From an uncultured Campylobacter sp. (GTDB taxonomy: Bacteria; Campylobacterota; Campylobacteria; Campylobacterales; Campylobacteraceae): a stretch of DNA of 64,000 nt. Every line of letters begins with the position of its first letter. Position 1 is the stretch's first letter. The stretch covers positions 15,200 through 79,199 of the forward strand of contig CALKQT010000034.1 in assembly GCA_937990735.1 (NCBI GenBank). Direction: 5' to 3'. Under the pieces are notes generated by a model that worked only from the letters and a program-made list of their open reading frames with translations, did not search any database and was not told the DNA's origin. Made by a program: the position numbers and the translations under genes. Shown one piece after another: positions 1,338 to 59,337 of the stretch.

Positions 1338-3422
1338 ATGAAAATTCTACTTGACAATCACAATGAGCAGGTTGCAAGTGTCGTAAATATTTGCTGCGAG
1401 CGCATCGGTGCGGACCTAGTAGCATATAGTGCGGACGAGAGTGAATATGATTTGACGATAAAAAATTATGAAGATGGCGATGATATTTCAAAATTTGATC
1501 TTAATAAAACGCTGTTTCTGACGCCTAAAAATGTCTCAGTACCAGGAGCGCGATACACCCTTACTAAGCCTTTTTCGCCGCTTGAGCTCATCACGTTTAT
1601 CAGCGAGTTTTCGATTCAAAATATGAGCGTGCAGGCGAAAGAAAAAATGGCGAAAGAATTTGCCGATGCAAGCTCTGTGATGAAAGAGATCGATGCGATT
1701 GACCAGGCAAATTCCACTTCGGGTAGTAATTTTGAAGAGCTTGTGGATAGCTTTTACGACTCCGGCAAGGATATACCGCTTTCGCAGCTGGCAAGCGACA
1801 TAGCGCCCGAGATTGCAGATGATGTGCCGCTTTCGCAGTTGGTAGGTGATATGCCGCGCGCGCCCGAGATCGCAGATGATATTCCGCTCTCACAGCTTGC
1901 AGATGAAGCAGCTCTTGCGGACACCATCGCCGATGATACGCCGCTTAACGCAGTCGCAGAAAAGATTGCGGATAATATCGCAGACGATATGCCTCTAAAC
2001 TTAGCTGCTGGCGATATCCCTGAGGATGTACCACTAAATAGTATCAGCACAAGCGAGTCTGCCGAAAGTAATAACACACCTCAGGGCGAAATTTCGCTCG
2101 CAAAGGATGACGCTCCAATAGCTCTAGCAGCGCTAGATGATGAAAATCCTAAGAATTTCAAAACAAATAAATCGCAGACAGAAGATGAAATTCCCGCCAC
2201 ACGGGCAAGCGAAACTTTACCGCTTGCGCAGCAAGATGAGCCGCAAAGAGCCGGCAGCTCTAATGAAACTGCTGTTGAAAAAAAGGCAGACGCTGCGCCT
2301 AATTTAGAGGAAGCGAAAGACTCTGCGGACGTTACGCTTAAACAACATGAGTCAGACGGCTCATTTGCCTATAAAACAGAGGAAAGAAAATCTGCCTCGC
2401 AAGTAGTGCAAGATGCGGCTGGCGCGTCTGTTAACAGTGGATTTGATATGGATTTTTCTAGGCTTTTCGATAGCGCTGGCATGCCCGTGGAGGAGTTTGG
2501 CGGATATGATAATTTTGCCGCGGCTGCGTTTGCTTCTGATGAAAAAGAGGATAAAAAATCTGCGCATGATAAAAATAAAGCGGCTACGGATTTTCAAAAA
2601 ACGCAAATTTCGTCTCAATACGAGGTCGCTTCAGATACGCCGATTGCGCTAGCGGGTGCGGGCGATATACCTCGCGAAAATCTTTATAACGCCGTTCCAT
2701 TTCAAAGCATGGAATTTACTGGCGGACTTGCACAGAATACGCCTATTTCTGCTCATAATGAAGCAGGGGATTCAATTGGCGCAAATTTCGCAGCTTCTAC
2801 AAATTTTAGTAATACCGGGACCACAAATTCTACTCCTGCGCCGAATTTTTCGGAGCTAAACTTACCGCACATATTAGATGCCTCAGATTTACCGAATCAA
2901 AGCGAACAATCTGATAGCGTTGCTGGCGGGTTTGCGGACGGATTTTTACGCGCTATGGAGGGCGATTTTGCAAACTCGTTTGCCGCAAACTCCGCAGATA
3001 GCGAGCAATTTAAATCCGGCAAGCCCGCAAAGAGCGCCGCGCAGCAGATAAAATTTAATGCTTCAAAGCCTATATCAAAGGCTTCGGAGCGCACCGAATT
3101 TAAAGCGCATAAATTCGGCGCGTCCGAGCAGGTAAATGAGATGAAATTTGGCGCACAAGCTATGCCGAATGAGCTTGCCGCTTCGGCTGCGGCGGAGTTT
3201 GCCAGCCTTATGGCAAGCGAGTTGGAGCCCAGCGCCAAAAGCGAGCCACTGCGTAACGAGCATATCAAAAAACCGAGCGCCGAGGAGCTGAAAACCAAGT
3301 TGCGCGATGATCTGGAAGCGGGCATCGCAAATACTATCGAGAGATTTGCGGGTAGCAAGGACGCCAAAGACGCGCTGAAGGACTTTAAGATCAATATTGA
3401 CATATCGTTTGGAGATAGATAG
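1338..3422 (+). CDS. Highly acidic repeat protein of unknown function, same position as the C. jejuni 'highly acidic protein' upstream of gmk
   Basis: 694-aa ORF, D/E/A/S-rich, with tandem PEIADD[VI]PLSQL units. About 95-aa N-terminal globular region. Its stop overlaps the gmk GTG start (TAGTG). Confidence 0.7.
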   Translation: MKILLDNHNEQVASVVNICCERIGADLVAYSADESEYDLTIKNYEDGDDISKFDLNKTLFLTPKNVSVPGARYTLTKPFSPLELITFISEFSIQNMSVQAKEKMAKEFADASSVMKEIDAIDQANSTSGSNFEELVDSFYDSGKDIPLSQLASDIAPEIADDVPLSQLVGDMPRAPEIADDIPLSQLADEAALADTIADDTPLNAVAEKIADNIADDMPLNLAAGDIPEDVPLNSISTSESAESNNTPQGEISLAKDDAPIALAALDDENPKNFKTNKSQTEDEIPATRASETLPLAQQDEPQRAGSSNETAVEKKADAAPNLEEAKDSADVTLKQHESDGSFAYKTEERKSASQVVQDAAGASVNSGFDMDFSRLFDSAGMPVEEFGGYDNFAAAAFASDEKEDKKSAHDKNKAATDFQKTQISSQYEVASDTPIALAGAGDIPRENLYNAVPFQSMEFTGGLAQNTPISAHNEAGDSIGANFAASTNFSNTGTTNSTPAPNFSELNLPHILDASDLPNQSEQSDSVAGGFADGFLRAMEGDFANSFAANSADSEQFKSGKPAKSAAQQIKFNASKPISKASERTEFKAHKFGASEQVNEMKFGAQAMPNELAASAAAEFASLMASELEPSAKSEPLRNEHIKKPSAEELKTKLRDDLEAGIANTIERFAGSKDAKDALKDFKINIDISFGDR
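1774..2045 (+). repeat. Coding tandem repeat (about 45-bp units, DD-x-PL-[SN]-x-[LV] peptide repeat) inside the acidic protein
   Basis: Repeated DIPLSQLA / DDVPLSQLV / DDIPLSQLA / DDTPLNAVA / DDMPLNLAA / EDVPLNSIS segments are visible in the translation and DNA. Confidence 0.75.
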
Positions 3423-4046: not shown

Positions 4047-4262
4047 ATGGGTTCTATGAGTATTGGACACTGGCTGATTGTTTTGATCGTTGTTGTGTTG
4101 CTGTTCGGAGCGAAAAAAATCCCAGAGCTTGCAAAGGGTCTAGGACAGGGCATAAAGACTTTCAAAAAAGAGATGGAAGAGGACGACGAACCGCAAAAGG
4201 TCGAGAAAAAGATGGAACAAGAGGTTAAAGACGCCGAAATCAGCGATACTAAAAAGGCGTAA
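4047..4262 (+). CDS. tatA: Sec-independent (Tat) translocase protein TatA/E
   Basis: 71 aa. N-terminal TM helix followed by [21 protein letters not shown] amphipathic motif. RBS AAAGGAGA upstream. Confidence 0.85.
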
Positions 4263-4267
4263 AGGAT

Positions 4268-6064
4268 TTGAAAAATTTAGTCTTAAATGAAATTTTTAAA
4301 ATTTTATCTCGCAAAGTCGTTTTAGAAAAACCCAAAGATAAAAGTTTGGCTCATTACGCCTCGCCCGAGGCTTTCGCGCTAGCTAAGGAGCTGCGAAAGG
4401 CGCCAAAGCTTATCGCCGAGGAGCTTGCGGCTAAATTTAAAGATAGCGAAATTCTAAGCGCCACGGCGGTGAATGGCTATCTAAATTTTCACCTAAAGCC
4501 CGCCGTGTTGGGCGCTCTTGCTGAAAATGCCCTTAGACTGGGCGGCGATTTTGCGAAAAACGACGCCGAGCTTGGACGCGGAATTTTACTAGCTTCAAAG
4601 AAGCTTTGCGCGAGCGAGCCTGCTAGCAAAGGCTGTGCTGCAAATCTAGCTGCGAGAGGCAACGACACCGCCAAATCGCAAAATTCCGCCACTAGGCAAA
4701 ATTTTATTTCGCAGAATTCCGAAGAGGCGTCAAATTCTATCGCAGCATCAAATTGTGATGAGGCGCGGAATTCCGCCGCCGCGCCGCAAAAAATTCTACT
4801 CGAATACATTAGCGCTAATCCTACAGGTCCGCTTCATATCGGGCACGTGCGCGGCGCCGTTTATGGCGATACATTCGCCCGCATCGGAGGCTATCTGGGG
4901 CACCGCGTCGATACCGAGTACTACATCAACGACGCGGGCAATCAGATTGAGCTTTTGGGCACTTCGATCGCGCTTCGTGCGCGCGAGCTCGCGGGCGAGG
5001 ACGTGAGCTACCCCGAGAAATACTACCGCGGCGAGTATATCGACGAGATTATCCCTCTTGCGCGCGCTGAGTTCGGTGATGAAATTTTCCGCGACGAATC
5101 GCGGATCTTGCAGCTCGCGGAGTTTGCTAAAGACGAAGTGCTAAAGATCATCCAAAAAGATCTCGCAGACGCCGGCATCCATATCCAAAACTGGGCTAGC
5201 GAAAAGAGCCTCTACGGCGAGCTTGGGTCTACGATTAAGAAGCTCGAGCGTAGCGGCAAGATGCATGAGGCGGATGACAAAATTTGGATCCGTTCATCGC
5301 AGCTCGGCGACGAAAAGGATCGCGTCGTCATTCGCGAGGATGCGCGCCCGACCTATCTTGCGGGCGACATCGTCTATCACAACAACAAATTTGAGCGCGG
5401 TTACGATAGATACATCAACATCTGGGGAGCCGATCACCACGGCTACATCGCGCGCTTAAAGGCTGCCGTGCATTTTCTGGGCTACGACGAAAGCAGGCTC
5501 GAGATCATCCTAATGCAGATGGTAAATTTGCTCAAAGACGGGCAGACCTACAAAATGAGCAAGCGCGCGGGCAACGCGATTTTGATGAGCGACGTGCTCG
5601 CCGCGATCGGCAGGGACGCGATGCGATTTATCTTCATCAGCAAAAAGGGCGAGACGCCGCTTGAGTTCGACGTGGACGAGCTCGCGCGCGAGGATAGCAG
5701 CAATCCGATCTTTTACATCAACTACGCCCACGCGCGGGTCAATCAAATTTTTACCAAAGCGGGCAAGCGCGAGGCGGACGTCTTGGGCGCGGACTTCGGC
5801 ACGCTAGATGAAGCGGGGCTCGGCCTAGCTTTTGCGGCGCTTGGTTTGAATGAAATTTTAAACGACGCATTTAATTCGCGCGGCTTGCAGAAGCTGCCCG
5901 ATTTCCTAAAGGCGCTCGCAGCGGACTTTCACAAATACTACAACGAAAACCGCGTCGTAGGCAGCGAGAACGAGGATGCGAAGCTCAAGCTGTTCGCTCT
6001 CGTAGCGCTCAGTATCCGTACGGCGTTTGCTCTGATGGGCCTAAGCGCGAAAGAGAAAATGTAG
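4268..6064 (+). CDS. argS: Arginine--tRNA ligase carrying an in-frame low-complexity insertion of about 70 aa
   Basis: Class I motifs: HIGH (PTGPLHIGHVRG) and KMSK (YKMSKRAGN). TTG start 5 nt after tatA. About 68 aa longer than my recollection of C. jejuni ArgS (about 530 aa, not checked here). The extra segment lies between the N-terminal domain and HIGH. Confidence 0.9.
   Translation: MKNLVLNEIFKILSRKVVLEKPKDKSLAHYASPEAFALAKELRKAPKLIAEELAAKFKDSEILSATAVNGYLNFHLKPAVLGALAENALRLGGDFAKNDAELGRGILLASKKLCASEPASKGCAANLAARGNDTAKSQNSATRQNFISQNSEEASNSIAASNCDEARNSAAAPQKILLEYISANPTGPLHIGHVRGAVYGDTFARIGGYLGHRVDTEYYINDAGNQIELLGTSIALRARELAGEDVSYPEKYYRGEYIDEIIPLARAEFGDEIFRDESRILQLAEFAKDEVLKIIQKDLADAGIHIQNWASEKSLYGELGSTIKKLERSGKMHEADDKIWIRSSQLGDEKDRVVIREDARPTYLAGDIVYHNNKFERGYDRYINIWGADHHGYIARLKAAVHFLGYDESRLEIILMQMVNLLKDGQTYKMSKRAGNAILMSDVLAAIGRDAMRFIFISKKGETPLEFDVDELAREDSSNPIFYINYAHARVNQIFTKAGKREADVLGADFGTLDEAGLGLAFAALGLNEILNDAFNSRGLQKLPDFLKALAADFHKYYNENRVVGSENEDAKLKLFALVALSIRTAFALMGLSAKEKM
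4680..4795. repeat. AATT-core short-period repeat (15-18 bp spacing) inside argS
   Basis: AATT at 4682, 4700, 4715, 4733, 4751 and 4769, with spacings of 18, 15, 18, 18 and 18. Translated as QNS/QNF/QNS/NS/NC/NS units. Confidence 0.75.
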
Positions 6065-6104
6065 TCGCGCGGGCTACATTTCGCGCCGATAGCCCTAAAT
6101 CTCA

Positions 6105-6420
6105 CGAACGAAATTTTATGATTTAAAATACAAAGCGAAATTTTACTTAAAATTTATAGCTATGAAATTTTAAAGCTAGTTCTAAATTTACGGCTCATAA
6201 AATTTCGATTTTAGAATTTTACGAGCGGTTTCGCGGCATTGCTACGGCGCTGTTCGTAAAATTTAAAATTTGGCTGCAAATTTACTGCTTGCGGAATTTC
6301 AAAATTTCAAAATTTTGCGGCGTGGAAGTTCGAAGTAAAATTTTAAAACAAGGCTTGAGGTACTAAAATTTTTGTGCAGATTAAATTTCATGCGACGAAA
6401 TTTAATTCGTAGAATTCTCC
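6105..6420. repeat. Intergenic RAATTY-rich short-period repeat block
   Basis: Dense AAATTT/GAATTT/AAATTC motifs (for example gcgaaattttac, ctatgaaatttta, cggaatttcaaaatttcaaaattttgcgg). No credible ORF. Confidence 0.7.
6141..6228 (+). repeat. Left copy of an approximately 90-bp dispersed direct repeat (partner at 7564..7653)
   Basis: ttttacttaaaatttatagctatgaaattttaaagctagttctaaatttacggct... aligns with ttttacttgaaattctatcgctatgaaattttaaggcttagttctaaatttagggct... The first 60 nt or so are nearly identical. Confidence 0.75.
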
Positions 6421-6486
6421 TTGGCGGGATTTGCCTGCAAGAGTACTCCTTAAGCCCCGCGGTGCATCGCCGCAAAAAGGATAGAT

Positions 6487-12408: not shown

Positions 12409-13386
12409 CTAGCCGCGAGCTTTGGCGATGCACGCCTCAATCGCCGCCATCACCGCTGCGCGAAACCCCGCAGCCTCCAGTGCCGCCAGCCCCTCAATCG
12501 TCGTGCCTGCAGGCGAGCAGACCGCGTCTTTAAGCTCCGATGGGCGCTTGCCTCTTTGTAGCAGGCGCGCCGTGCCCTCTACTGCCGCCGCTACCGCGTC
12601 GTAGCACAGCGCTCGCGGCAGTCCGCCCCGTACGCCCGCGTCTGCCGCCGCCTCGATAAAGGTGCACATATACGCAGGTAAGCTGCCAGCAATCCCCGTA
12701 AATGCGGCAAAACCAGCCTCGTCTATCTCGTAGAATTTGCCGATTTTGGCGGCTAGCGCTCGCACGATCTCCCGACTGGCCTCATCAAAATACTCGCCGT
12801 AGCACAGCGCCGTAGCTGACGCGCCGATACCCGCAGCGACGTTTGGCATCGCGCGGGCTACAAAAACGTCCGCACCTACGATATTTTGGGCGCACTCCAG
12901 CTTGAAATTCGGCGCCAAAAGAAGCAGGATTTTGCCCGCAAGCTCAGGCGCGATCAGGCGCAAAATCCCCTCGTAGCTGGCGGGCTTGGTCGCGAGCACG
13001 ATAATATCCGCTTCGTGCGCCAGCTGCGTCTCGCCTTGCAAAATTTGCACGCCGTAGCGCTTGCGTAAGGTTTCGTTTTTGCTTCTAGCATAAGCTAGGA
13101 CTTGAAGCTTCGTATCGGAGCTGGACTGTGCGTAAGAGGAATTTTGCCCGTCGCTAGCGGAATTTTGCATATCGGGCTCGGAATTCCGCTCGCAAGCGGT
13201 AAAATTTTGAGTATCGGGCATAAAATTCCGCCCGTCGTGCGCGCAATTCTCTCCGCTCGCTGCGCAATTTTCCTTATCCTCTGTAAAATTTTCTCTGCTC
13301 GCCGTGCAATTTTGCCCGCCAGCTTTGCAAAGTGCGGCGATCATCGCCTCGCCCATATTTCCGCCGCCGATAAATCCCACTTTCAT
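12409..13386 (-). CDS. proC: Pyrroline-5-carboxylate reductase carrying an in-frame heptad-repeat insertion of about 68 aa
   Basis: N-terminal Rossmann motif MKVGFIGGGNMGEAM. C-terminal PGGTTI-like motif SPAGTTIEGL. RBS AAAGGAGC before the ATG at 13386. The insertion lies between the first Rossmann helix and the next strand. Confidence 0.85.
   Translation of the reverse strand: MKVGFIGGGNMGEAMIAALCKAGGQNCTASRENFTEDKENCAASGENCAHDGRNFMPDTQNFTACERNSEPDMQNSASDGQNSSYAQSSSDTKLQVLAYARSKNETLRKRYGVQILQGETQLAHEADIIVLATKPASYEGILRLIAPELAGKILLLLAPNFKLECAQNIVGADVFVARAMPNVAAGIGASATALCYGEYFDEASREIVRALAAKIGKFYEIDEAGFAAFTGIAGSLPAYMCTFIEAAADAGVRGGLPRALCYDAVAAAVEGTARLLQRGKRPSELKDAVCSPAGTTIEGLAALEAAGFRAAVMAAIEACIAKARG
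13140..13328. repeat. Nine tandem 21-bp units, each starting with AATT (exact 21-bp phase), inside proC
   Basis: AATT at 13140, 13161, 13182, 13203, 13224, 13245, 13266, 13287 and 13308. The units diverge outside the core (aattttgcccgtcgctagcgg, aattttgcatatcgggctcgg, aattccgctcgcaagcggtaa, ...). Confidence 0.9.
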
Positions 13387-13502
13387 TTTCGCTCCTTTTA
13401 AAGCTAAATTATGCCTCAATGATAGCTCAAAATTTCTTTATCCGCCCTTGCGGCGCGCGGTTTATCTACGTAAAAGCAAATTTTAGCTACAATCTCGCCT
13501 AA

Positions 13503-14559: not shown

Positions 14560-15750
14560 TTGGCTAATACAAATCCACGCGGGCGCCGTAAAAAGCGCCA
14601 GATCAACTACGCAACGATCGCCTTTGTCGTAATCTTATGCTTTTTAAGCGGTGCGGTTACCTACGCGGTTTTGGATCTCGTATTTTCGGGCAATAAAGCC
14701 GCGTTGCAGCAAAGCTCGCGCAAACAAACTCCCGAGAGCCCTTCCGATTCTCGCGGTAAAAAGCCGCGTTTAAGCGCTGCACAGAAGGAAACTCTGATTC
14801 AAAAGGAGCTTGATAAGATCGCCGAGCAAAACGTAACCGCGCCTAAGATGAGCATCGAGCCCGCACGGCAGAATTCCGCAGGACAAAATTCTTCAAACGG
14901 CGATTCGCAAAATTCCGTAAATTCTATCGCTTCCTCAAATTCCGTCGCCGTAAATTCGGCAGGCGGCGGATCGGACGTAAATTTTACCGCGGCAAATTCC
15001 GCTTCAGAAAATTCCATAAATTCTACCGCGCAAAGCCACGCTTCTAGCGGCGCGGACGATCTTTCTAAATCGCCGCGCAAGGCTTTGCCCGCAGGCTCTC
15101 GCGCAAAGCTAGCGATCATCATCGACGACGTAGGTACCGGCGAGCAGGCGCAAAAGATTGCCGCGCTGCCCGTGCGAGTGACGCCATCCATCTTCCCGCC
15201 CGAGTATCAGCGCAAGGACACGCGCTCGCTCGCTCGCGGCTTTGAGCATTACGCGATCCACCTGCCGATGGAGGCGAGCTCTGCCAAAAATAATTCCGCG
15301 ACGCTGCGAGCTTCGGATAATTATGAAAAGCTGCAAGGCGTCATAGCGAAGCTACGCGCGGACTTTCCGAACGCTAAATTTATAAACAACCACACCGGTT
15401 CTAAATTTACCGCCGACGAGCGCGCGATGCAAAACCTACTGCGCGCGATGAACGAGCATGGATTTTTATTTATCGACTCGCGCACGAGCCCCGCTACCAA
15501 GGCTAAGGCGGCGATGAATGAGCTTGGCATGCGATACGTGCATCGCGATGTATTTTTGGATAATCAAAACAGCGTCGCCGCGGTGCGCAAAAAGCTGCGC
15601 GAAGCCGTCGCGCTTGCTAAAAAGCAGGGTTACGCCATCGCTATCGGCCATCCCAAAAGCTCCACTCTGCGCGCGCTTGCAAACAGCGCCGACATCCTAG
15701 GCGAGGTCGATTTAGTGTATTTGGACGAAATTTATGAGTACTACGAGTGA
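14560..15750 (+). CDS. Divergent polysaccharide deacetylase family protein (YibQ-like) with N-terminal TM anchor and low-complexity linker
   Basis: LAIIIDDVGTG...HLPMEA...INNHTGS...GHP motifs. TTG start. Confidence 0.75.
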   Translation: MANTNPRGRRKKRQINYATIAFVVILCFLSGAVTYAVLDLVFSGNKAALQQSSRKQTPESPSDSRGKKPRLSAAQKETLIQKELDKIAEQNVTAPKMSIEPARQNSAGQNSSNGDSQNSVNSIASSNSVAVNSAGGGSDVNFTAANSASENSINSTAQSHASSGADDLSKSPRKALPAGSRAKLAIIIDDVGTGEQAQKIAALPVRVTPSIFPPEYQRKDTRSLARGFEHYAIHLPMEASSAKNNSATLRASDNYEKLQGVIAKLRADFPNAKFINNHTGSKFTADERAMQNLLRAMNEHGFLFIDSRTSPATKAKAAMNELGMRYVHRDVFLDNQNSVAAVRKKLREAVALAKKQGYAIAIGHPKSSTLRALANSADILGEVDLVYLDEIYEYYE

Positions 15751-16522
15751 GCTCGGTTTTAAAATTCAAAGCCTAGCAAGGCTCGGTGCGAGCGAGCCCG
15801 CGCAGCTGTATTTTAGGGGCGAGCCGGCGCTACTGCAAAAGCGCCGCATCTCGATCGTGGGCTCGCGCAAGATGAGCGTTTATAGTAAAAATTTGATCCT
15901 GCGCCTTGCGCGCGCTTTGAGCGATGCGGACTTTTGCGTCGTAAGCGGCGCGGCGATCGGCTGCGACATAGCCGCGCACGAAGGGGCGTTTCCAAACACG
16001 ATTGCGGTTTTTGGAAACGGTCTTGATCAAATTTATCCCGCGCAAAACGCCACCATGATCGGCAAAATTTATGAGCGTAGCCTCGCGCTTAGCGAGTATG
16101 AGGACGGCGTGAGCGCGCGCGGATTTCAGTTTTTGCAGCGCAACCGCATCGTCGTGGCGCTGTCCGAAGCTCTGATTATCGCTCAAGCCGAGCCTCGCAG
16201 CGGCTCGCTGCAAAGCGCGCGCCTGGCTCGTGAGATGGGCGTGCCCGTGTACGTGCTGCCGCACCGAATGGACGAGAGCGCGGGCACGAATGATCTGCTC
16301 GCAAAATCTCAGGCGCGACTGATTGCGGATTTTGGCGAATTTGTCGCCTCTTTGGCTCCGCAGACGCCGCAAAACACTGAGCGCGCACGGGATGAGGTGA
16401 TGGAATTTTTAGCGCTAAATTCCGATCTGCAAGCGGCGATCGAGCGCTTCGGAGATAAAATTTACGAATACGAGCTTGAAGGCAGGATCGAAATTTTAGG
16501 CGCAAAGATAGTGGCAAAATAG
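15734..16522 (+). CDS. dprA: DNA processing protein DprA (Smf)
   Basis: IVGSRKMS.Y......L...L......VVSGAAIGCDIAAHEGA Rossmann-like DprA core. Overlaps the upstream gene by 17 nt. Confidence 0.85.
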   Translation: MSTTSELGFKIQSLARLGASEPAQLYFRGEPALLQKRRISIVGSRKMSVYSKNLILRLARALSDADFCVVSGAAIGCDIAAHEGAFPNTIAVFGNGLDQIYPAQNATMIGKIYERSLALSEYEDGVSARGFQFLQRNRIVVALSEALIIAQAEPRSGSLQSARLAREMGVPVYVLPHRMDESAGTNDLLAKSQARLIADFGEFVASLAPQTPQNTERARDEVMEFLALNSDLQAAIERFGDKIYEYELEGRIEILGAKIVAK

Positions 16523-17941: not shown

Positions 17942-18737
17942 ATTTAAAGACCGAGAGGATAAAATTTCATGGATCGTATAAGCGGCGAAAAGCGGAAATT
18001 TATCGCTCATGACCGATATGCTTTTTTGGCATACAGCGCGCGGAATCGCGGCAAATATAGTGCTCATGGATGATGTGTGGGTGCAGCATACACATATGAA
18101 ATTTACGTACGCTATACAGATACTGCGCGGCCTAAATTATTTTAAGACTCACCATATCTAATTGGTGCGATCTAAGAATCCTGGGTATTGAGCCAAAACG
18201 CCTAAAGACGCATTATGCTTACGATTTTAGCATAGGCAAGCCGATTTTTCTAAGATAAAATTTAAAGGCTGGCAGCGTAAAATTTTTTAAAATTTCTAAG
18301 CAGCAATGCGAAATTTTCAAAAGTTTTCTAGGGCACGGCAAGATGCTTGTCGCGGGTTTGGTATGCAACAAAATATTTTACACACTAGATTATCGCCCTG
18401 ATAAATTACCATTGCAGAGGCTGTAGGTGCTTAAGACCTCAATGATTAAATACGTTTTAGTCCTATTATAAATACTATAGCCGTGGACAGTCATATAGAC
18501 GTGTGAGTAAAAATTGAGGCAAGCCAGCCATAAAAATAATCTTGCAAGTAAAATTTTAATTTGCCTTTTTAAAATTCCGCTCAAAGTTCCGTTTAAAATT
18601 TTATTCAAAAATTTTGCTTGGGATTTTGATAGGAATTTTGCAAAAATTCGCCGGAAATTTCACAGCTATTATCAAAAATTAAAATTTTATCCCTCGCTTT
18701 TTGCTATAATTATTTTTAAAATTTAAAAGGAGCAAAA

Positions 18738-19423
18738 ATGAAAATTTTAGCGTCGATTGCCGCACTAATCGTAGCAGCCTACTTGCTCGCGCAGATATTT
18801 TTCCCGCAAGGGGTCTCGTTTGTCGGATGCGGTGTCGGTAGGGCTAATTCGTGCGAAGACTATGGAGCATATTTGCTTGAGGAGCGAGATTATGAGGCGG
18901 CAAAAAGCCGTTTGAAAAAGCTTGTGAAGCAGGGCTGGAAAATAGCTGTGCTATCGCGGGGGATTTGTATTACGACGAGCAAAATTTATATAAAACTACA
19001 AAAGATAAGGGCAAGTCCGCGCGGTTTTATTCCAAAGCGTGCGAGCTGGGAGCTGCCAAAGCTTGCTACAACGCCGCGATAATCTCTTATAAAAATGCCG
19101 ATAAGAAAAATACGTTCGCATTTTTTGCCAAATCATGCGATTTGGGATTAGGCGAGGGCTGCTTGAACGCTGCGGTTGCTAGCTACGAAGAAAAAGACTA
19201 TCAGGGCGCTCTTAAGTTTTTCCTCAAATCTTGCGATGCCGCTTTGGCAGAGGGATGCCAAAGGGTCGGGCTAGTGTATTCAAAGAAGGAATTTGGCGAG
19301 CCGGATCTGGATAAGGCGATGATCTACTACGACAAGGCCTGCAAGCTGGGAGCTGAGTTTAGCTGCAATGTAGTAGCCGCGATGAATAAAATAAATGCAA
19401 GCGAGGCTAATGCGACTAAATAG
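18738..19423 (+). pseudogene. Sel1-like repeat cysteine-rich protein gene with a frameshift at an A5 run
   Basis: The signal-peptide frame (18738) and the SLR frame (18965 ORF, open from 18896) join if the A5 run at 18902..18906 were A6. This would give ...YEAAKKPFEKACEAGLENSCAIAGDLYYDEQ... Confidence 0.6.
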
Positions 19424-29999: not shown

Positions 30000-30325
30000 T
30001 GAAAGCTTTTATCGATTGCGACTGCGAAATTTTGCAAAGGACGCTGGAGCTGTTTTTGAAGGATCGCGCTACAAGTGCGCAGGATTGCGACTTTGTGATA
30101 AGCGATGAGCCACAAAGCTCGGCAAAACCGCTATTTTTGATCGGCGAGGGCGGAGATCTGACGCTACCGTTTTCAAAGAGTGCCTTGCTATCGAAGCTGG
30201 AGGATTTTCAAGGCTCGCTAAAGCGGGATTTTAGCGAATATGACGCGGCGGAAGAGGAAATTTGCGCTCTATTTGATGAGTTTAAGGCAAGAATCATCGA
30301 AATTTTAAGAAGGCAAAATGGCTAA
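29996..30325 (+). CDS. Hypothetical protein (109 aa)
   Basis: ORF translationally coupled on both sides (ATGA overlap upstream, 8-nt overlap downstream). No recognisable motif. Confidence 0.5.
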   Translation: MMKAFIDCDCEILQRTLELFLKDRATSAQDCDFVISDEPQSSAKPLFLIGEGGDLTLPFSKSALLSKLEDFQGSLKRDFSEYDAAEEEICALFDEFKARIIEILRRQNG

Positions 30326-31775
30326 ATTTTCCAAACCCGCCGGCGCGCTCTTTACGCAAATCTCAAGCGGCATTTATAGGGGCAAAAAGCTCGCTCTGCC
30401 CGCGTTTTCGAGTACGCGCAGCACGAAAAGCATCGTAAAGGGCTCGTTTTTCGATACTTGGCGGGCGGAGTTGCGCGGCGCGGCGTTTATCGAGTGCTTC
30501 GGCGGTAGCGGCGCGATGGCGCTTGAAGCGCTAAGTAACGGCGCAAAAAACGTTTATGCGATCGAAAAGGATGTCGCCGCGCATAAGATAATGCGGAAAA
30601 ATTTCGAGTTTTTTGGGCTCGGCGCAAACGCGATTTTGGGTGATTGTTTCGAGCGACTACCCGAAATTTTGCACGAGCTGCAAGCGGATATGAACGGACG
30701 CTCGGGCGCGAATTCGCTAAATTTAAGCGGCAAAAATTTAGACAAAAACCATGCCGCCACCTACCGCAAAAATTTAGACGGCGAAAAAGACGGCTGTCGC
30801 AAAAGCTTTAGTGGCGTAGAGCAGGGCGAGAACCCATACTGCGGCACGCAAAGCGTAGAAGTGGAAGACGGCACGCAAAGCGGCGTGAAAGATTTTGCAA
30901 AATGCGGTACGCAAAACAGCGTGTCTTACGGCACGCAAAATGGCGCGCAGGGCGGCGCAAATGATGATTGCGCAGGCGAGGGTTTTGGCGATTGTGCCCA
31001 GATTAACGATTATGCGGGCGCTTCTAGTATAAAATATCGTGCGAATTCGCTAACTACGGATGCCGCGAGCTTTGGCGAAAAGGTTGACGATAACTGCGCT
31101 TCTCAATACGACGCGAGCGGCACCGAGACCGCTAATTGCAACTTAAATTTAAGCTCAAAATGCAGCGAGAGCTCTAATTTTGACGCAAATCGCGGTGCGG
31201 GCTTAGGCGCGAGCTGCGAAGAGAAAGAAATCTTAAATTTAGGCGAAAATTTTGATTCTAGCTGCAGAAAAAGTTTACATTCAAGCGCAAATTTCGTCTA
31301 TGATTCAAGAAAAAATTCCACTGCGAATTCTGACGGCAATTTTGGCGCTAGTTGCGAAGAAAATTCGCGCCCAAACGTAAATTTAACCCGTGGTTCAGGA
31401 AAAAATTTCGCCACCAACTCCCGTGAAAATTTAGCATGCGGTTTAGGCGAAAGCTCTACCGCAAACGATTTAGGCAAATGTTCTGCTGCAAATTCTAGCG
31501 AAAGCCATACCGTAAATTCTAGTGAAAATTCCGTCTCCGATCCCGCGCGCAGAGTGTTTGTCTATCTAGATCCGCCGTTTGCGATCAGGCAGGGCTTTGG
31601 CGAGATTTACGAGCGGGTGCTGGCGCTGATAGCGCGCCTAGGCTCCGTGCGGTGCGAGCTGCCAATCGCGATCGAGCATATGAGCGAGCTTGAGCTGCCG
31701 CCTAAAATCGGCGATTTCGCGCTGCTTAAATCGCGCAAATTCGGCGCTACGACGATGAGCTACTACGTAAAATGA
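30318..31775 (+). CDS. rsmD: RsmD-family 16S rRNA (guanine-N2)-methyltransferase split by an in-frame low-complexity insertion of about 288 aa
   Basis: N-terminal 121 aa (GIYRGKKL..P....TRST...VKGS.F, motif I ECFGGSGAMALEALS) and C-terminal 76 aa (motif IV VYLDPPF) together make a normal RsmD of about 197 aa. Confidence 0.7.
   Translation: MAKFSKPAGALFTQISSGIYRGKKLALPAFSSTRSTKSIVKGSFFDTWRAELRGAAFIECFGGSGAMALEALSNGAKNVYAIEKDVAAHKIMRKNFEFFGLGANAILGDCFERLPEILHELQADMNGRSGANSLNLSGKNLDKNHAATYRKNLDGEKDGCRKSFSGVEQGENPYCGTQSVEVEDGTQSGVKDFAKCGTQNSVSYGTQNGAQGGANDDCAGEGFGDCAQINDYAGASSIKYRANSLTTDAASFGEKVDDNCASQYDASGTETANCNLNLSSKCSESSNFDANRGAGLGASCEEKEILNLGENFDSSCRKSLHSSANFVYDSRKNSTANSDGNFGASCEENSRPNVNLTRGSGKNFATNSRENLACGLGESSTANDLGKCSAANSSESHTVNSSENSVSDPARRVFVYLDPPFAIRQGFGEIYERVLALIARLGSVRCELPIAIEHMSELELPPKIGDFALLKSRKFGATTMSYYVK
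30681..31544. repeat. Low-complexity, AATT-rich coding insertion inside rsmD
   Basis: Asn-[LSFC]-rich translation (NSLNLSGKNLDKN, NFDANRG, NFGASCEEN, NSSESHTVNSSENS). Internal repeats CGTQS/DGTQS/CGTQN/YGTQN and GASCEE(K/N). Confidence 0.65.
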
Positions 31776-42614: not shown

Positions 42615-43010
42615 CGGGCTAGAGTTTTTAAAGCATTTATGCGGCTTACGTTACGGCTTAAGCGCGAAATTTTGTCTAAAGTTACGGCGCAAAATTTTGC
42701 CTAGATTTACAGCATAAAATTTTTATCAAGAGCTTGGTTTTAGAATTCCATCCCGAATTTCGTTTAGGATTTCGTCTAAAATTTTAACTTATATAAAATT
42801 TGGGTTTGTGATCTCGTTTAAAATTTTAACGCGTAATTCGCTTTTGGATTTTATCCGCTATCCTAAAACGCAAAGCTTTGGAATTTTAAATTTAGCGGCA
42901 GGCTATGGAATTTAAAATTTTAAATCAAGCTGGAATTTTATGGGTTGCAATGGAATTTAAAATTTTGGATCGAACGAAATTTTACGTATCGGAATTTTTA
43001 AAATTTAAGA
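42615..43010. repeat. Intergenic RAATTY-rich short-period repeat block
   Basis: gcgaaattttgtc, gcaaaattttgcc, cataaaattttta, ttagaattccatcccgaatttcg, ctaaaattttaac, tatggaatttaaaattttaaatc, ctggaattttatgg, aatggaatttaaaattttgg. Confidence 0.7.
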
Positions 43011-43039
43011 AATTAAAAATGCGCGGCAAAGTGCCGCGC
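43008..43039 (-). terminator. Rho-independent terminator downstream of focA (end of the hyf-focA operon)
   Basis: Perfect 8-bp GC-rich stem gcgcggca/tgccgcgc (43021..43039) with a 3-nt loop. On the minus strand it is followed by ATTTTTAATTTCTT. Confidence 0.55.
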
Positions 43040-53467: not shown

Positions 53468-53861
53468 ACCTTTCTCCTTGACTTAAGGAATTTTAAAAAT
53501 TTTTTACTAAAAATTTTGGTGTAATTATATTTAAGTCCGCAAAAAAATTCCGTCATTTATCTGACGATATTTGGAATTTATTTGATAAATTTGCTTTAAA
53601 AGCTTAAATTTAAAAACTAAATTCTTTTTTAAACCGGTTCGTTGATTATTTGCTTAAAAAGTCTAGTATGTAAGTATTGAAGTATATTTTAAAATTTAAA
53701 TTACTACTGAAATTACCCTAACTTACTCCTAATTATAATTGAAAAAATTCTTTTAGCTTAAGGCAAAATTTCAATTTTATTTTAGGTAAGAATTTATATA
53801 ATTGTGCCGAAATTGCATATATGGTAATTTTGCATGTTTAGTATTTTCGAAAGGAGAAAAT

Positions 53862-58859: not shown

Positions 58860-59337
58860 TATATTTGAATTTTGCGCCTTAGTCGAGCGCAAAATTCCGC
58901 GCGGAGTTTTGATGCAAATTCCGCACGAAGCCTAGATTAGAATTTTACGCAGAGCTGCCCCGCGTTGTCTAAAATTTTTTACAAAATTCCATGCCGCAAA
59001 ATGCACTTAAAATTTTAAATTTGCTATTGCGCGGAATTTCTTAGCGTAAATTCTAAGCCTTGAAATTTTGCTCTTGTTTGACAGCATAAAATTTTAAAAT
59101 AAAATTCTGTAGCCGCCATGCCTTAAAATTTTATTTGCAAAACATACTTTTTAAATTTTAAAATTTTAAATCTAAACCCGCAAAATTCCGTATTTTGCGT
59201 TTTTGAAATTCTATTTAGTAAAATTTTATCTCGCGGATCTCTCGCTCTATAAATTTTTGCGCTAAATGAAATTATACTCCACAAGTTTGCGCTTCGTAAA
59301 ATTTTATCTCGCAAAATTTCGCTTAAAATTTCGCGAG
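58860..59337. repeat. Intergenic RAATTY-rich short-period repeat block
   Basis: ttgaattttgcgcc, gcgcaaaattccgcg, gcaaattccgc, tagaattttacgc, ctaaaattttttacaaaattccatgcc, cttaaaattttaaatttgc, gcggaatttctt, gtaaattctaagccttgaaattttgc and so on. Confidence 0.7.

Follow-up and report, generated by a model that had tools for sequence, protein, structure and literature searches.

The 64,000-nucleotide stretch of DNA analysed in this study (hereafter the window), which belongs to contig CALKQT010000034.1 of an uncultured Campylobacter sp., carries an argS gene that starts with TTG and encodes an arginine--tRNA ligase (ArgS) of 598 amino acids (aa), in which the N-terminal domain and the catalytic core are separated by about 70 extra residues (105-174). 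The open reading frame (ORF), the Pfam assignments and the alignments agree on this arrangement, which an earlier reading made from the sequence alone (the sequence-only reading) had described. The Pfam matches are Arg_tRNA_synt_N at residues 6-76, tRNA-synt_1d (class-I catalytic domain) from residue 168 and DALR_1 at residues 484-598, and the extra segment aligns at residues ~105-174, with ...FAKNDAELGRG on its N-terminal side and ILLEYISANPTGPLHIGH on its C-terminal side. The closest solved structure, C. jejuni ArgS 3FNR (E = 2e-169), aligns only from residue 161 onward, and the residues of the HIGH motif (H190, I191, G192 and H193) are invariant in the ArgS alignment. In arginyl-tRNA synthetases (ArgRS) the N-terminal domain is Add-1, on the side of the tRNA D-loop, and the anticodon is bound by the C-terminal DALR domain, so the description of the N-terminal domain as the anticodon side had to be corrected.

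With reference to its distribution, a protein search that covered 5.8 billion proteins placed the insert-bearing ArgS in one tight clade of uncultured Campylobacter sp., at least 89% identical to the query. This clade comprises about 50 metagenome-assembled genomes (MAGs) among the GTDB species representatives, which appear to come from human gut and stool metagenomes, and the insert is kept in all of them. The ArgS lengths within the clade were 598, 597, 591, 587, 580 and 569 aa, so that length polymorphism among close relatives, which the sequence-only reading had proposed to check, was seen in silico, whereas all Campylobacter ArgS outside the clade measured 517-546 aa and lacked the insert. 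The nearest outgroups without it, L078 (42% guanine plus cytosine (GC), 531 aa) and L077 (34% GC, 534 aa), share the gene order gmk-tatA-argS. The alignment with other Campylobacter ArgS shows that the insert is lineage-specific and confined to one clade, and no segment conserved genus-wide in sequence and length without AATT phasing was found.

An AlphaFold2 (AF2) model of ArgS, built from a 25-sequence alignment (mean predicted local distance difference test score (pLDDT) 76.8), gave residues 108-170 a pLDDT of 26-34 and no secondary structure amid well-folded flanks, and this predicted disordered stretch follows N-terminal-domain helix 78-94 and precedes the first Rossmann strand, at 175-183. 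Conservation and entropy were assessed in a set of 36 full-length orthologues. The entropies by codon position were 0.205, 0.247 and 0.331 in the insert and 0.054, 0.023 and 0.279 in the rest of ArgS, and the Nei-Gojobori ratio of nonsynonymous to synonymous substitution rates (dN/dS) was 0.44 in the insert, or 0.49 once the motif codons are excluded, and 0.06 in the remainder of the protein. Natural alleles without 1, 7, 11, 18 or 29 of the ~70 insert residues were also observed. Because of the low pLDDT, the dN/dS contrast and these natural partial deletions, the insert is best regarded as a disordered linker expansion that appears largely unconstrained as a protein, and not as a folded domain; a folded lineage-specific ArgRS insertion domain was rejected on the same three grounds.

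The insert DNA carries AATT starting at 4682, 4700, 4715, 4733, 4751 and 4769, with spacings of 18, 15, 18, 18 and 18, all multiples of three. All six are in the phase AAT-TNN and are read as QNS, QNF, QNS, SNS, SNC and RNS, and the positions, the spacings and the reading as Asn followed by Ser, Phe or Cys reproduce the account of the sequence-only reading throughout. Two further AATT sites, at 4582 and 4792, mark the borders of the insert in a different phase (GG-AATT-TT, read as Gly-Ile, and AA-AATT-C, read as Lys-Ile). Six same-phase AATT within 92 base pairs (bp) did not arise in any of 5000 codon shuffles of argS (0/5000), which yielded on average 2.2 AATT per 92-bp segment and 8.3 per gene, and 21 were observed in the gene. 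Tandem Repeats Finder, run on 4200-5200 with a minimum score of 30, recovered no tandem array, and the periodicity is carried by short imperfect direct repeats of 13-18 nucleotides (nt). An antisense ORF of 106 aa at 4489-4809 (-) also runs across the insert, with the palindromic motifs translated as Glu-Phe; it was considered as a source of constraint and judged spurious, with the positions outside the hexamer described below varying in every phase.

The motif under constraint is longer than AATT and is better written RAATTY (R, purine; Y, pyrimidine). Consensus AATT sites in argS number 22, of which 19 are RAATTY, and all 19 stay RAATTY in 35-36 of the 36 orthologues, their flanking bases varying only between A and G or between C and T; with change limited to C and T, exchange of Ser and Phe (TCC<->TTC) is allowed. 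The only polymorphic AATT cores in argS are those of the three sites that are not RAATTY, at 4751 (AAATTG), 5070 (CAATTC) and 5873 (TAATTC). Within the insert, the AATT cores have an entropy of 0.028 versus 0.296 at non-core positions (0/20000 permutations), and when the A/T positions are taken separately, those of the RAATTY cores are variable in 1/20 cases (entropy 0.009) and the others in 26/75 (entropy 0.233). The Asn codons in RAATTY sites are never AAC, while the non-motif Asn at 4661 toggles between AAT and AAC (entropy 0.96). This retention of RAATTY alone, together with Asn codons locked to AAT, therefore indicates a constraint on the DNA, namely on the hexamer RAATTY. The conserved unit is the hexamer, and neither the surrounding sequence nor the encoded peptide. 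Accordingly, AATT as such, which the sequence-only reading took as the relevant unit, did not hold, as the site at 4751 is not RAATTY and its core is polymorphic. Its suggestion that an essential synthetase tolerates the segment as neutral loop filler under DNA-level selection fits well with the dN/dS, the pLDDT and the near-invariant RAATTY sites, whereas the other possibility it raised, an acquired function, found no support, as natural variants miss 29 of the ~70 residues.

The same hexamer is abundant well beyond argS. In the window, with 47.7% GC, 644 RAATTY sites were counted against ~75 expected by base composition (8.6x); AAATTT makes up 391 of them, 19x its expectation, and a Markov model ranks AATT first among over-represented tetramers. 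The symmetrised logo of the 795 AATT sites in the window holds information only at -1 (R 0.89) and +4 (Y 0.89), and the motif tests as R-AATT-Y by the edges of this logo, by the decay of AATT sites that are not RAATTY and by the avoidance of AAT before T[AG]N. The density of AATT per kilobase (kb) is 26.7 in intergenic DNA, 8.6 in coding DNA and about 37 in the insert. Codon usage in the window follows the motif as well: AAT is chosen for Asn in 82% of cases before T[CT]N versus 50% elsewhere (p = 6e-14) and 34% before T[AG]N; AAA for Lys in 94% before TTY versus 60% (p = 3e-11); ATT for Ile in 67% after NRA codons versus 22% (p = 5e-32); and TCN for Ser in 79% after AAT versus 44%. Context-dependent synonymous codon choice creates RAATTY window-wide.

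Comparison among genomes gave the same picture. In 34 aligned loci of 7.8 kb, the RAATTY core was intact at 0.93 in coding and 0.85 in intergenic DNA, as against 0.75 and 0.61 for any hexamer, and AATT sites in coding sequence that are not RAATTY were intact at 0.72. Across 19 Campylobacter argS loci with 28-52% GC, RAATTY per kb is flat with GC (5.6-14.2, rho 0.15), while its observed/expected ratio rises with GC from 1.9 to 8-10 (rho 0.87, p = 1e-6); loci of Helicobacter and Desulfovibrionaceae had 0.8-4.5 RAATTY per kb. RAATTY displays three sequence features of uptake sequences: over-representation, conservation above background and, within genes, a preferred reading frame, a location where protein conservation is low and the use of synonymous codons; preferential uptake by competent cells is known only for C. 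jejuni, where it depends on methylation (PMC10046745, PMC8468864). The features of the argS locus are collected in Table 1.

Table 1. Features of argS and its insert, with window coordinates; fractions are counts among the 36 orthologues.
Feature	Position	Strand	Basis or observation
argS, arginine--tRNA ligase	4268..6064	+	ORF list, Pfam, 3FNR match
N-terminal (Add-1) domain, ending with helix 78-94 and the FAKND segment	4283..4567	+	Pfam 6-76; AF2 helix pLDDT 85-94
Clade-specific in-frame insert, residues ~105-174, predicted disordered	4580..4789	+	Alignments, AF2, dN/dS
Non-repetitive half of the insert, LLASKKLCASEPASKGCAANLAARGNDTAK	4586..4675	+	Alignments; in all clade members, without RAATTY
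Length-variable half of the insert, in-frame AAT-TNN at degenerate ~18-bp spacing	4676..4789	+	Deletions of 3, 21, 33, 54 and 87 bp in relatives all map here
RAATTY GAATTT, upstream border of the insert	4581..4586		RAATTY in 35/36
RAATTY AAATTC, Asn-Ser	4681..4686		RAATTY in 36/36; flanks with A/G and C/T variation only
RAATTY AAATTT, Asn-Phe	4699..4704		RAATTY in 36/36
RAATTY GAATTC, Asn-Ser	4714..4719		RAATTY in 36/36
RAATTY AAATTC, Asn-Ser	4732..4737		RAATTY in 36/36
AAATTG, AATT but not RAATTY, polymorphic core	4750..4755		AATT in 33/36 (AACT and AAAT variants); RAATTY in 0/36
RAATTY GAATTC, Asn-Ser	4768..4773		RAATTY in 35/36
RAATTY AAATTC, downstream border, Lys-Ile of KILLEY	4791..4796		RAATTY in 36/36
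Direct repeat copy 1, TCGCAAAATTCCG, deletion endpoint	4676..4688	+	Forms one end of the 33-bp and of the 87-bp deletion
Direct repeat copy 2, TCGCAGAATTCCG, deletion endpoint	4709..4721	+	Forms one end of the 33-bp and of the 54-bp deletion
Direct repeat copy 3, GCGCGGAATTCCG, deletion endpoint	4763..4775	+	Forms one end of the 54-bp and of the 87-bp deletion
Catalytic core: Rossmann strand 1, KILLEYISANPTGPL, and HIGH motif (4835-4846)	4790..4846	+	AF2 strand 175-183

During the analysis of length variation, the DNA alignment placed the ends of the 33-, 54- and 87-bp deletions at three copies of TCGCRRAATTCCG (4676, 4709 and 4763, with spacings of 33 and 54 bp), and further deletions of 21 bp and 3 bp were seen in the insert. 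The variants in length are deletions whose direct-repeat boundaries hold RAATTY. In a neighbour-joining tree the clade is star-like, with about 4.8% mean nucleotide divergence, and the short argS alleles are scattered over it, with the direction of change unpolarised, which points to recurrent deletion or recombination, or both. The longest ArgS of the clade has 598 aa, and no expansion beyond this was seen in the protein search. A variable-number tandem repeat or minisatellite was rejected, as Tandem Repeats Finder gave no array and, among 3, 21, 33, 54 and 87, only 54 bp is a multiple of ~18 bp, with deletion ends at 13-nt repeats; an array of ~18-bp units in the variable half would be a decayed one at most. 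The idea that the insert arose as a tandem duplicate of the coding DNA next to it found no support, since neither Smith-Waterman nor hhalign found significant similarity: Smith-Waterman scores of the insert against its flanks, compared with codon or residue shuffles, gave P = 0.24 downstream and 0.19 upstream for DNA and 0.46 and 0.07 for protein, and hhalign with 36-sequence profiles of the insert and the flanking sequence gave a probability of 0.1. A weak likeness of EPASKGCAANLAARGNDTAK to upstream KPAVLGALAENALRLGGDFAK was noticed and is unproven.

The linker that joins the N-terminal domain to the catalytic core has received additional sequence more than once. An independent insert of ~17 residues lies in the same linker in other Campylobacter lineages with ArgS of 545-546 aa (L076 3001-4638; P0070, P0061; also P0114). 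In L076/P0070, of 46.5% GC and with an ArgS of 545 aa, this insert holds two in-frame RAATTY, ATA AAT TTC and GAA AAT TCG. Since this insert arose separately at the same place, the linker is a recurrent landing site. As for the insert-bearing clade, its loci L001-L054 stand for about 50 GTDB species-level genomes with argS about 95% identical and a star-like tree without resolved branching, which suggests that these uncultured gut Campylobacter form a population of great diversity with much recombination. A single clade MAG carries the label C. gracilis. The MAG bin ERR589518_bin.19 holds two argS genes (L049 and L055), one of the clade type and one 68% identical and insert-free on a contig of 51.7% GC, probably because two Campylobacter species were binned together.

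On balance, we consider it probable that RAATTY, as an uptake or methylation motif, accumulated in a permissive disordered linker of ArgS. Our confidence is high for the descriptive core and moderate for the link of RAATTY to uptake or methylation. With reference to the literature, RAATTY is reported to be methylated in C. jejuni, C. coli, C. fetus and C. hyointestinalis, and a methyltransferase conserved in Campylobacter, named CtsM in C. jejuni and CfeMI in C. fetus, forms N6-methyladenine (m6A) at the hexamer (PMC10046745, PMC8468864, PMC13436318). Two of these reports describe DNA uptake by C. jejuni as requiring methylated RAATTY (PMC10046745, PMC8468864), and a preprint, citing the primary study, describes DNA with methylated RAATTY as transforming C. 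jejuni better than unmethylated or motif-free DNA; the preprint further records RAATTY about every 60 bp in C. jejuni and an orphan methylase for the motif (bioRxiv 10.1101/2024.09.10.611283). In C. fetus, RAATTY methylation is universal and the motif is under-represented in prophages (PMC13436318).

Under this proposal, RAATTY would be kept as the target of a genus-wide methyltransferase of the CtsM type. As the motif is rare by chance at 48% GC, it would have been enriched, wherever the protein permits, through biased uptake and recombination (a molecular drive, as proposed for the uptake signal sequences (USS) of Haemophilus and the DNA uptake sequences (DUS) of Neisseria) or through selection for methylation sites. 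The reading AAT-TCN (Asn-Ser) is the sole fully polar reading of RAATTY, the other phases bringing Ile, or Lys or Glu and then Phe, and the insert may use a single phase because a hydrophilic disordered linker favours the polar Asn-Ser. Slippage or unequal recombination among motif-bearing units of ~18 bp would have grown the tract and would now be trimming it. The star-like tree of the clade ArgS is compatible with frequent recombination and was noted in favour of the uptake model. DprA (DNA_processg_A), a recombination mediator of natural transformation, is encoded in the window at 15734-16522 (+), which was likewise noted in favour.

Several points weigh against this reading. No DNA methyltransferase domain was present in the 45 window ORFs scanned with Pfam, shorter ORFs lying outside the scan, and no gene of the ctsM type was found in the 64-kb window, where the sole [DNS]PP[YFW] motif belongs to an RsmD-like ORF; methylation and competence of the clade are therefore assumed from other Campylobacter species. 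A single methylated RAATTY may suffice for uptake in C. jejuni; if so, 10 per kb exceeds any obvious need and is left to drive. The preference for R and Y at the flanks is equally predicted by a rigid A-tract with a narrow minor groove and no pyrimidine-purine (YpR) steps at its edges, so that hexamer specificity alone does not identify a methylase. The sequences compared are kin and recombining, hence the conservation counts are not independent events. The dN/dS of 0.44-0.49 in the insert is relaxed and not fully neutral, and the insert half at 4586-4675, which is without RAATTY, is not accounted for in its origin.

The same A-tract argument opens the alternative that RAATTY is kept at the DNA level for a reason other than uptake, such as a nucleoid-associated protein that binds a structural A-tract or narrow minor groove, DNA curvature or methylation-based regulation, with the linker being simply tolerant. 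This we consider unlikely, although several observations agree with it: judging from the logo, RAATTY seems to lack flanking YpR steps, as A-tract physics favours; the top density is intergenic, with roughly three AATT there for each one in an equal length of coding DNA; the classic A-tract AAATTT dominates the sites; and a methylase gene was not found in the window. We know of no nucleoid protein that binds RAATTY, and this was counted against the alternative. The information, moreover, ends sharply at six bases with interchangeable A/G and C/T flanks, which matches the degenerate site of the known Campylobacter methylase (PMC13436318). The enrichment at synonymous sites runs across ordinary coding DNA and is not confined to promoters, and the density of this one hexamer is constant genus-wide whatever the GC content.

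It is improbable that the insert gained a protein role, as an arm that binds tRNA or a partner or as a regulatory disordered tail, with Asn-Ser/Phe conserved as residues. The retention of the insert in all ~50 clade genomes examined, a dN/dS that stays below 1 and the invariance of Asn at five insert positions would agree with such a role. Nevertheless, natural variants dispense with 7, 11, 18 or 29 of the residues, the AF2 pLDDT is 26-34, and the motif Asn is always AAT while the codon of the non-motif Asn toggles. Either Ser or Phe can follow Asn, yet the codon of that residue retains T at its first base and a pyrimidine at its second, and the conservation of RAATTY is just as high in other phases, between genes and at synonymous sites. 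The motifs contain no N-X-S/T sequon and ArgS is cytoplasmic, and for these two reasons, the first by inspection, the PglB N-glycosylation sequon (D/E-X-N-X-S/T) was rejected as well.

The sequence-only reading spoke of the same AATT-core repeat being inserted in frame, and the insert could on this view be a copy of a small mobile or dispersed element, comparable to the Rickettsia palindromic elements (RPE), with the AATT-rich intergenic repeats as other copies. The in-frame tracts rich in AAT-TNN in at least four other window ORFs, the intergenic regions full of degenerate AATT-centred repeats and the likeness of the words GGAATTTTAC and AAAATTCTAC that border the insert would agree with such an element. 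Yet the 795 AATT sites share only RAATTY, with no information past the hexamer in the logo; blastn of the insert against the window returned only 9-14 nt around RAATTY and tblastn nothing significant, so that no element was found; the sole inverted repeat that spans the tract covers 26 nt with 73% complementarity; and the tracts differ in period (18, 21 and 15-24 bp) and in length. A mobile element is therefore very improbable. A pure slippage by-product, in which AATT merely lies within the duplicated unit with no selection or drive on the motif, is highly unlikely too: the degenerate 18-bp spacing with short direct repeats and the indels mediated by those repeats suit it, but the units have diverged nearly everywhere save in the RAATTY cores, the AATT site that is not RAATTY decays where the RAATTY sites do not, and synonymous codon choice favours RAATTY window-wide.

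Tracts rich in in-frame AAT-TNN, similar to that of ArgS, were noticed in at least four other ORFs of the window. The pyrroline-5-carboxylate reductase ProC (ORF 12409-13419 (-)), of 336 aa here versus 257 aa in outgroup L078, has an N-terminal insert of ~65 aa at 13140-13308 that splits its Rossmann domain and carries nine AATT exactly 21 bp apart, all read as Asn followed by Cys, Phe or Ser (QNC, ENF, ENC, ..., QNS), with 6/9 being RAATTY. In the RsmD-like methyltransferase (ORF 30318-31775 (+)), Pfam Cons_hypoth95 is matched in two stretches, a DPPF motif is present, and the low-complexity insert at 30700-31440, of roughly 250-300 aa, is rich in AAT-TNN (NS/NL/NF/NC) at spacings of 12-42 bp. 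A divergent polysaccharide deacetylase (ORF 14560-15750 (+)) has ten in-frame AAT-TCN/TTT (QNSAGQNSSNGDSQNSVNSIASSNS...) in its N-terminal linker at 14872-15019. The ORF upstream of gmk (1338-3422 (+), 694 aa), without a Pfam match, contains repeats of 51-57 bp (1770-1917, DIPLSQLA units) and in-frame AATT runs at 2784-2844 and 3007-3145, and its counterparts in outgroups measure 434, 623 and 675 aa.

ORFs of at least 90 aa take up only ~79% of the window, and the long intergenic regions are dense in RAATTY with GC-rich spacers of 9-25 bp in between, as in the stretches 6080-6480, 18544-18743, 42660-43020, 53616-53815 and 59010-59330. No repeat family exceeded about 30 nt at 70% identity. Other short words behave differently: GGCC is strongly depleted (49 versus 226 expected, ratio 0.22), CCGG and GTAC stand at about half their expectation, and GTCGAC, GTATAC and ACTAGT have zero occurrences. 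Such depletion resembles an avoidance of restriction sites and runs in the opposite direction to what RAATTY shows.

Among known systems, RAATTY comes nearest in its behaviour to USS and DUS within genes and to HIP1 of cyanobacteria. The CtsM system of C. jejuni has the same hexamer in the same genus. The CtsM studies, however, concern genomes of 30-33% GC in which RAATTY is common by composition (~1.9x), whereas in the present DNA of 48% GC the enrichment is 8.6x and shapes proteins, with the methylase assumed. The USS and DUS resemble RAATTY in being short motifs hugely over-represented genome-wide (for RAATTY, in the 64-kb window), with an accumulation explicable by uptake bias and recombination, and in lying within coding DNA in preferred reading frames and at poorly conserved positions, where they inflate particular peptides, here Asn-Ser and Asn-Phe (compare Findlay and Redfield, PMC2817400). 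They differ in that RAATTY is a degenerate palindrome of 6 bp that, in C. jejuni, works only if m6A-methylated; that it occurs about 10 times per kb as against about 1 per kb; that it is clustered in lineage-specific in-frame inserts of housekeeping enzymes and not merely laid over existing codons; and that the uptake bias for this clade is inferred from C. jejuni. HIP1 (GCGATCGC) of cyanobacteria is likewise a highly iterated palindrome of coding and non-coding DNA, is methylated, and was reported to raise natural transformation in a methylation-dependent manner (bioRxiv 10.1101/2024.09.10.611283). Unlike RAATTY, HIP1 is 8 bp long, GC-rich and non-degenerate. To our knowledge, HIP1 does not form phased in-frame arrays inside essential enzymes.

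Two systems resemble the ArgS insert at the protein level. Ogata and colleagues reportedly described, in 2000, RPE that lie in frame in essential genes; like the ArgS insert, these add peptides of DNA-level origin that housekeeping proteins tolerate in frame on their surface or in linkers, but RPE measure 100-150 bp with full-length copies alike, and here only the hexamer is shared. The Asn-rich low-complexity inserts in housekeeping proteins of Plasmodium, including aminoacyl-tRNA synthetases, are attributed to DNA-level processes and share with the ArgS insert that they are disordered, fast-evolving, length-polymorphic, Asn-containing and located in essential enzymes. The Plasmodium inserts follow extreme AT bias and homopolymer slippage, whereas here the GC content is 48% and Asn recurs every 5-6 residues, always as AAT and then T. 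In a limited literature search, no paper was found on RAATTY enrichment in high-GC Campylobacter or on RAATTY-phased inserts.

As a more tentative extension, which we regard as possible though less than probable, RAATTY could act in higher-GC Campylobacter as a selfish DNA word that holds its density constant, biases codons, and seeds or preserves disordered Asn-Ser/Phe inserts in ArgS, ProC, the RsmD-like protein and others; an uptake signal would in that case directly make new protein sequence. The combination of hexamer conservation, codon-context bias and phase-locked Asn-Ser tracts offers a sequence-only signature with which uptake or methylation motifs may be detected in MAGs, and the length-polymorphic tract of ArgS is a handy strain marker for this abundant uncultured gut Campylobacter clade. 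If the link to uptake or methylation is true, the ArgS insert would be an unusually clear case in which a signal at the DNA level, and not protein function, dictates part of the sequence of an essential protein, and a DNA signal could drive both the birth and the retention of disordered inserts. The RAATTY uptake model would then extend from C. jejuni to the whole genus, over which the density of the motif is flat from 28 to 52% GC.

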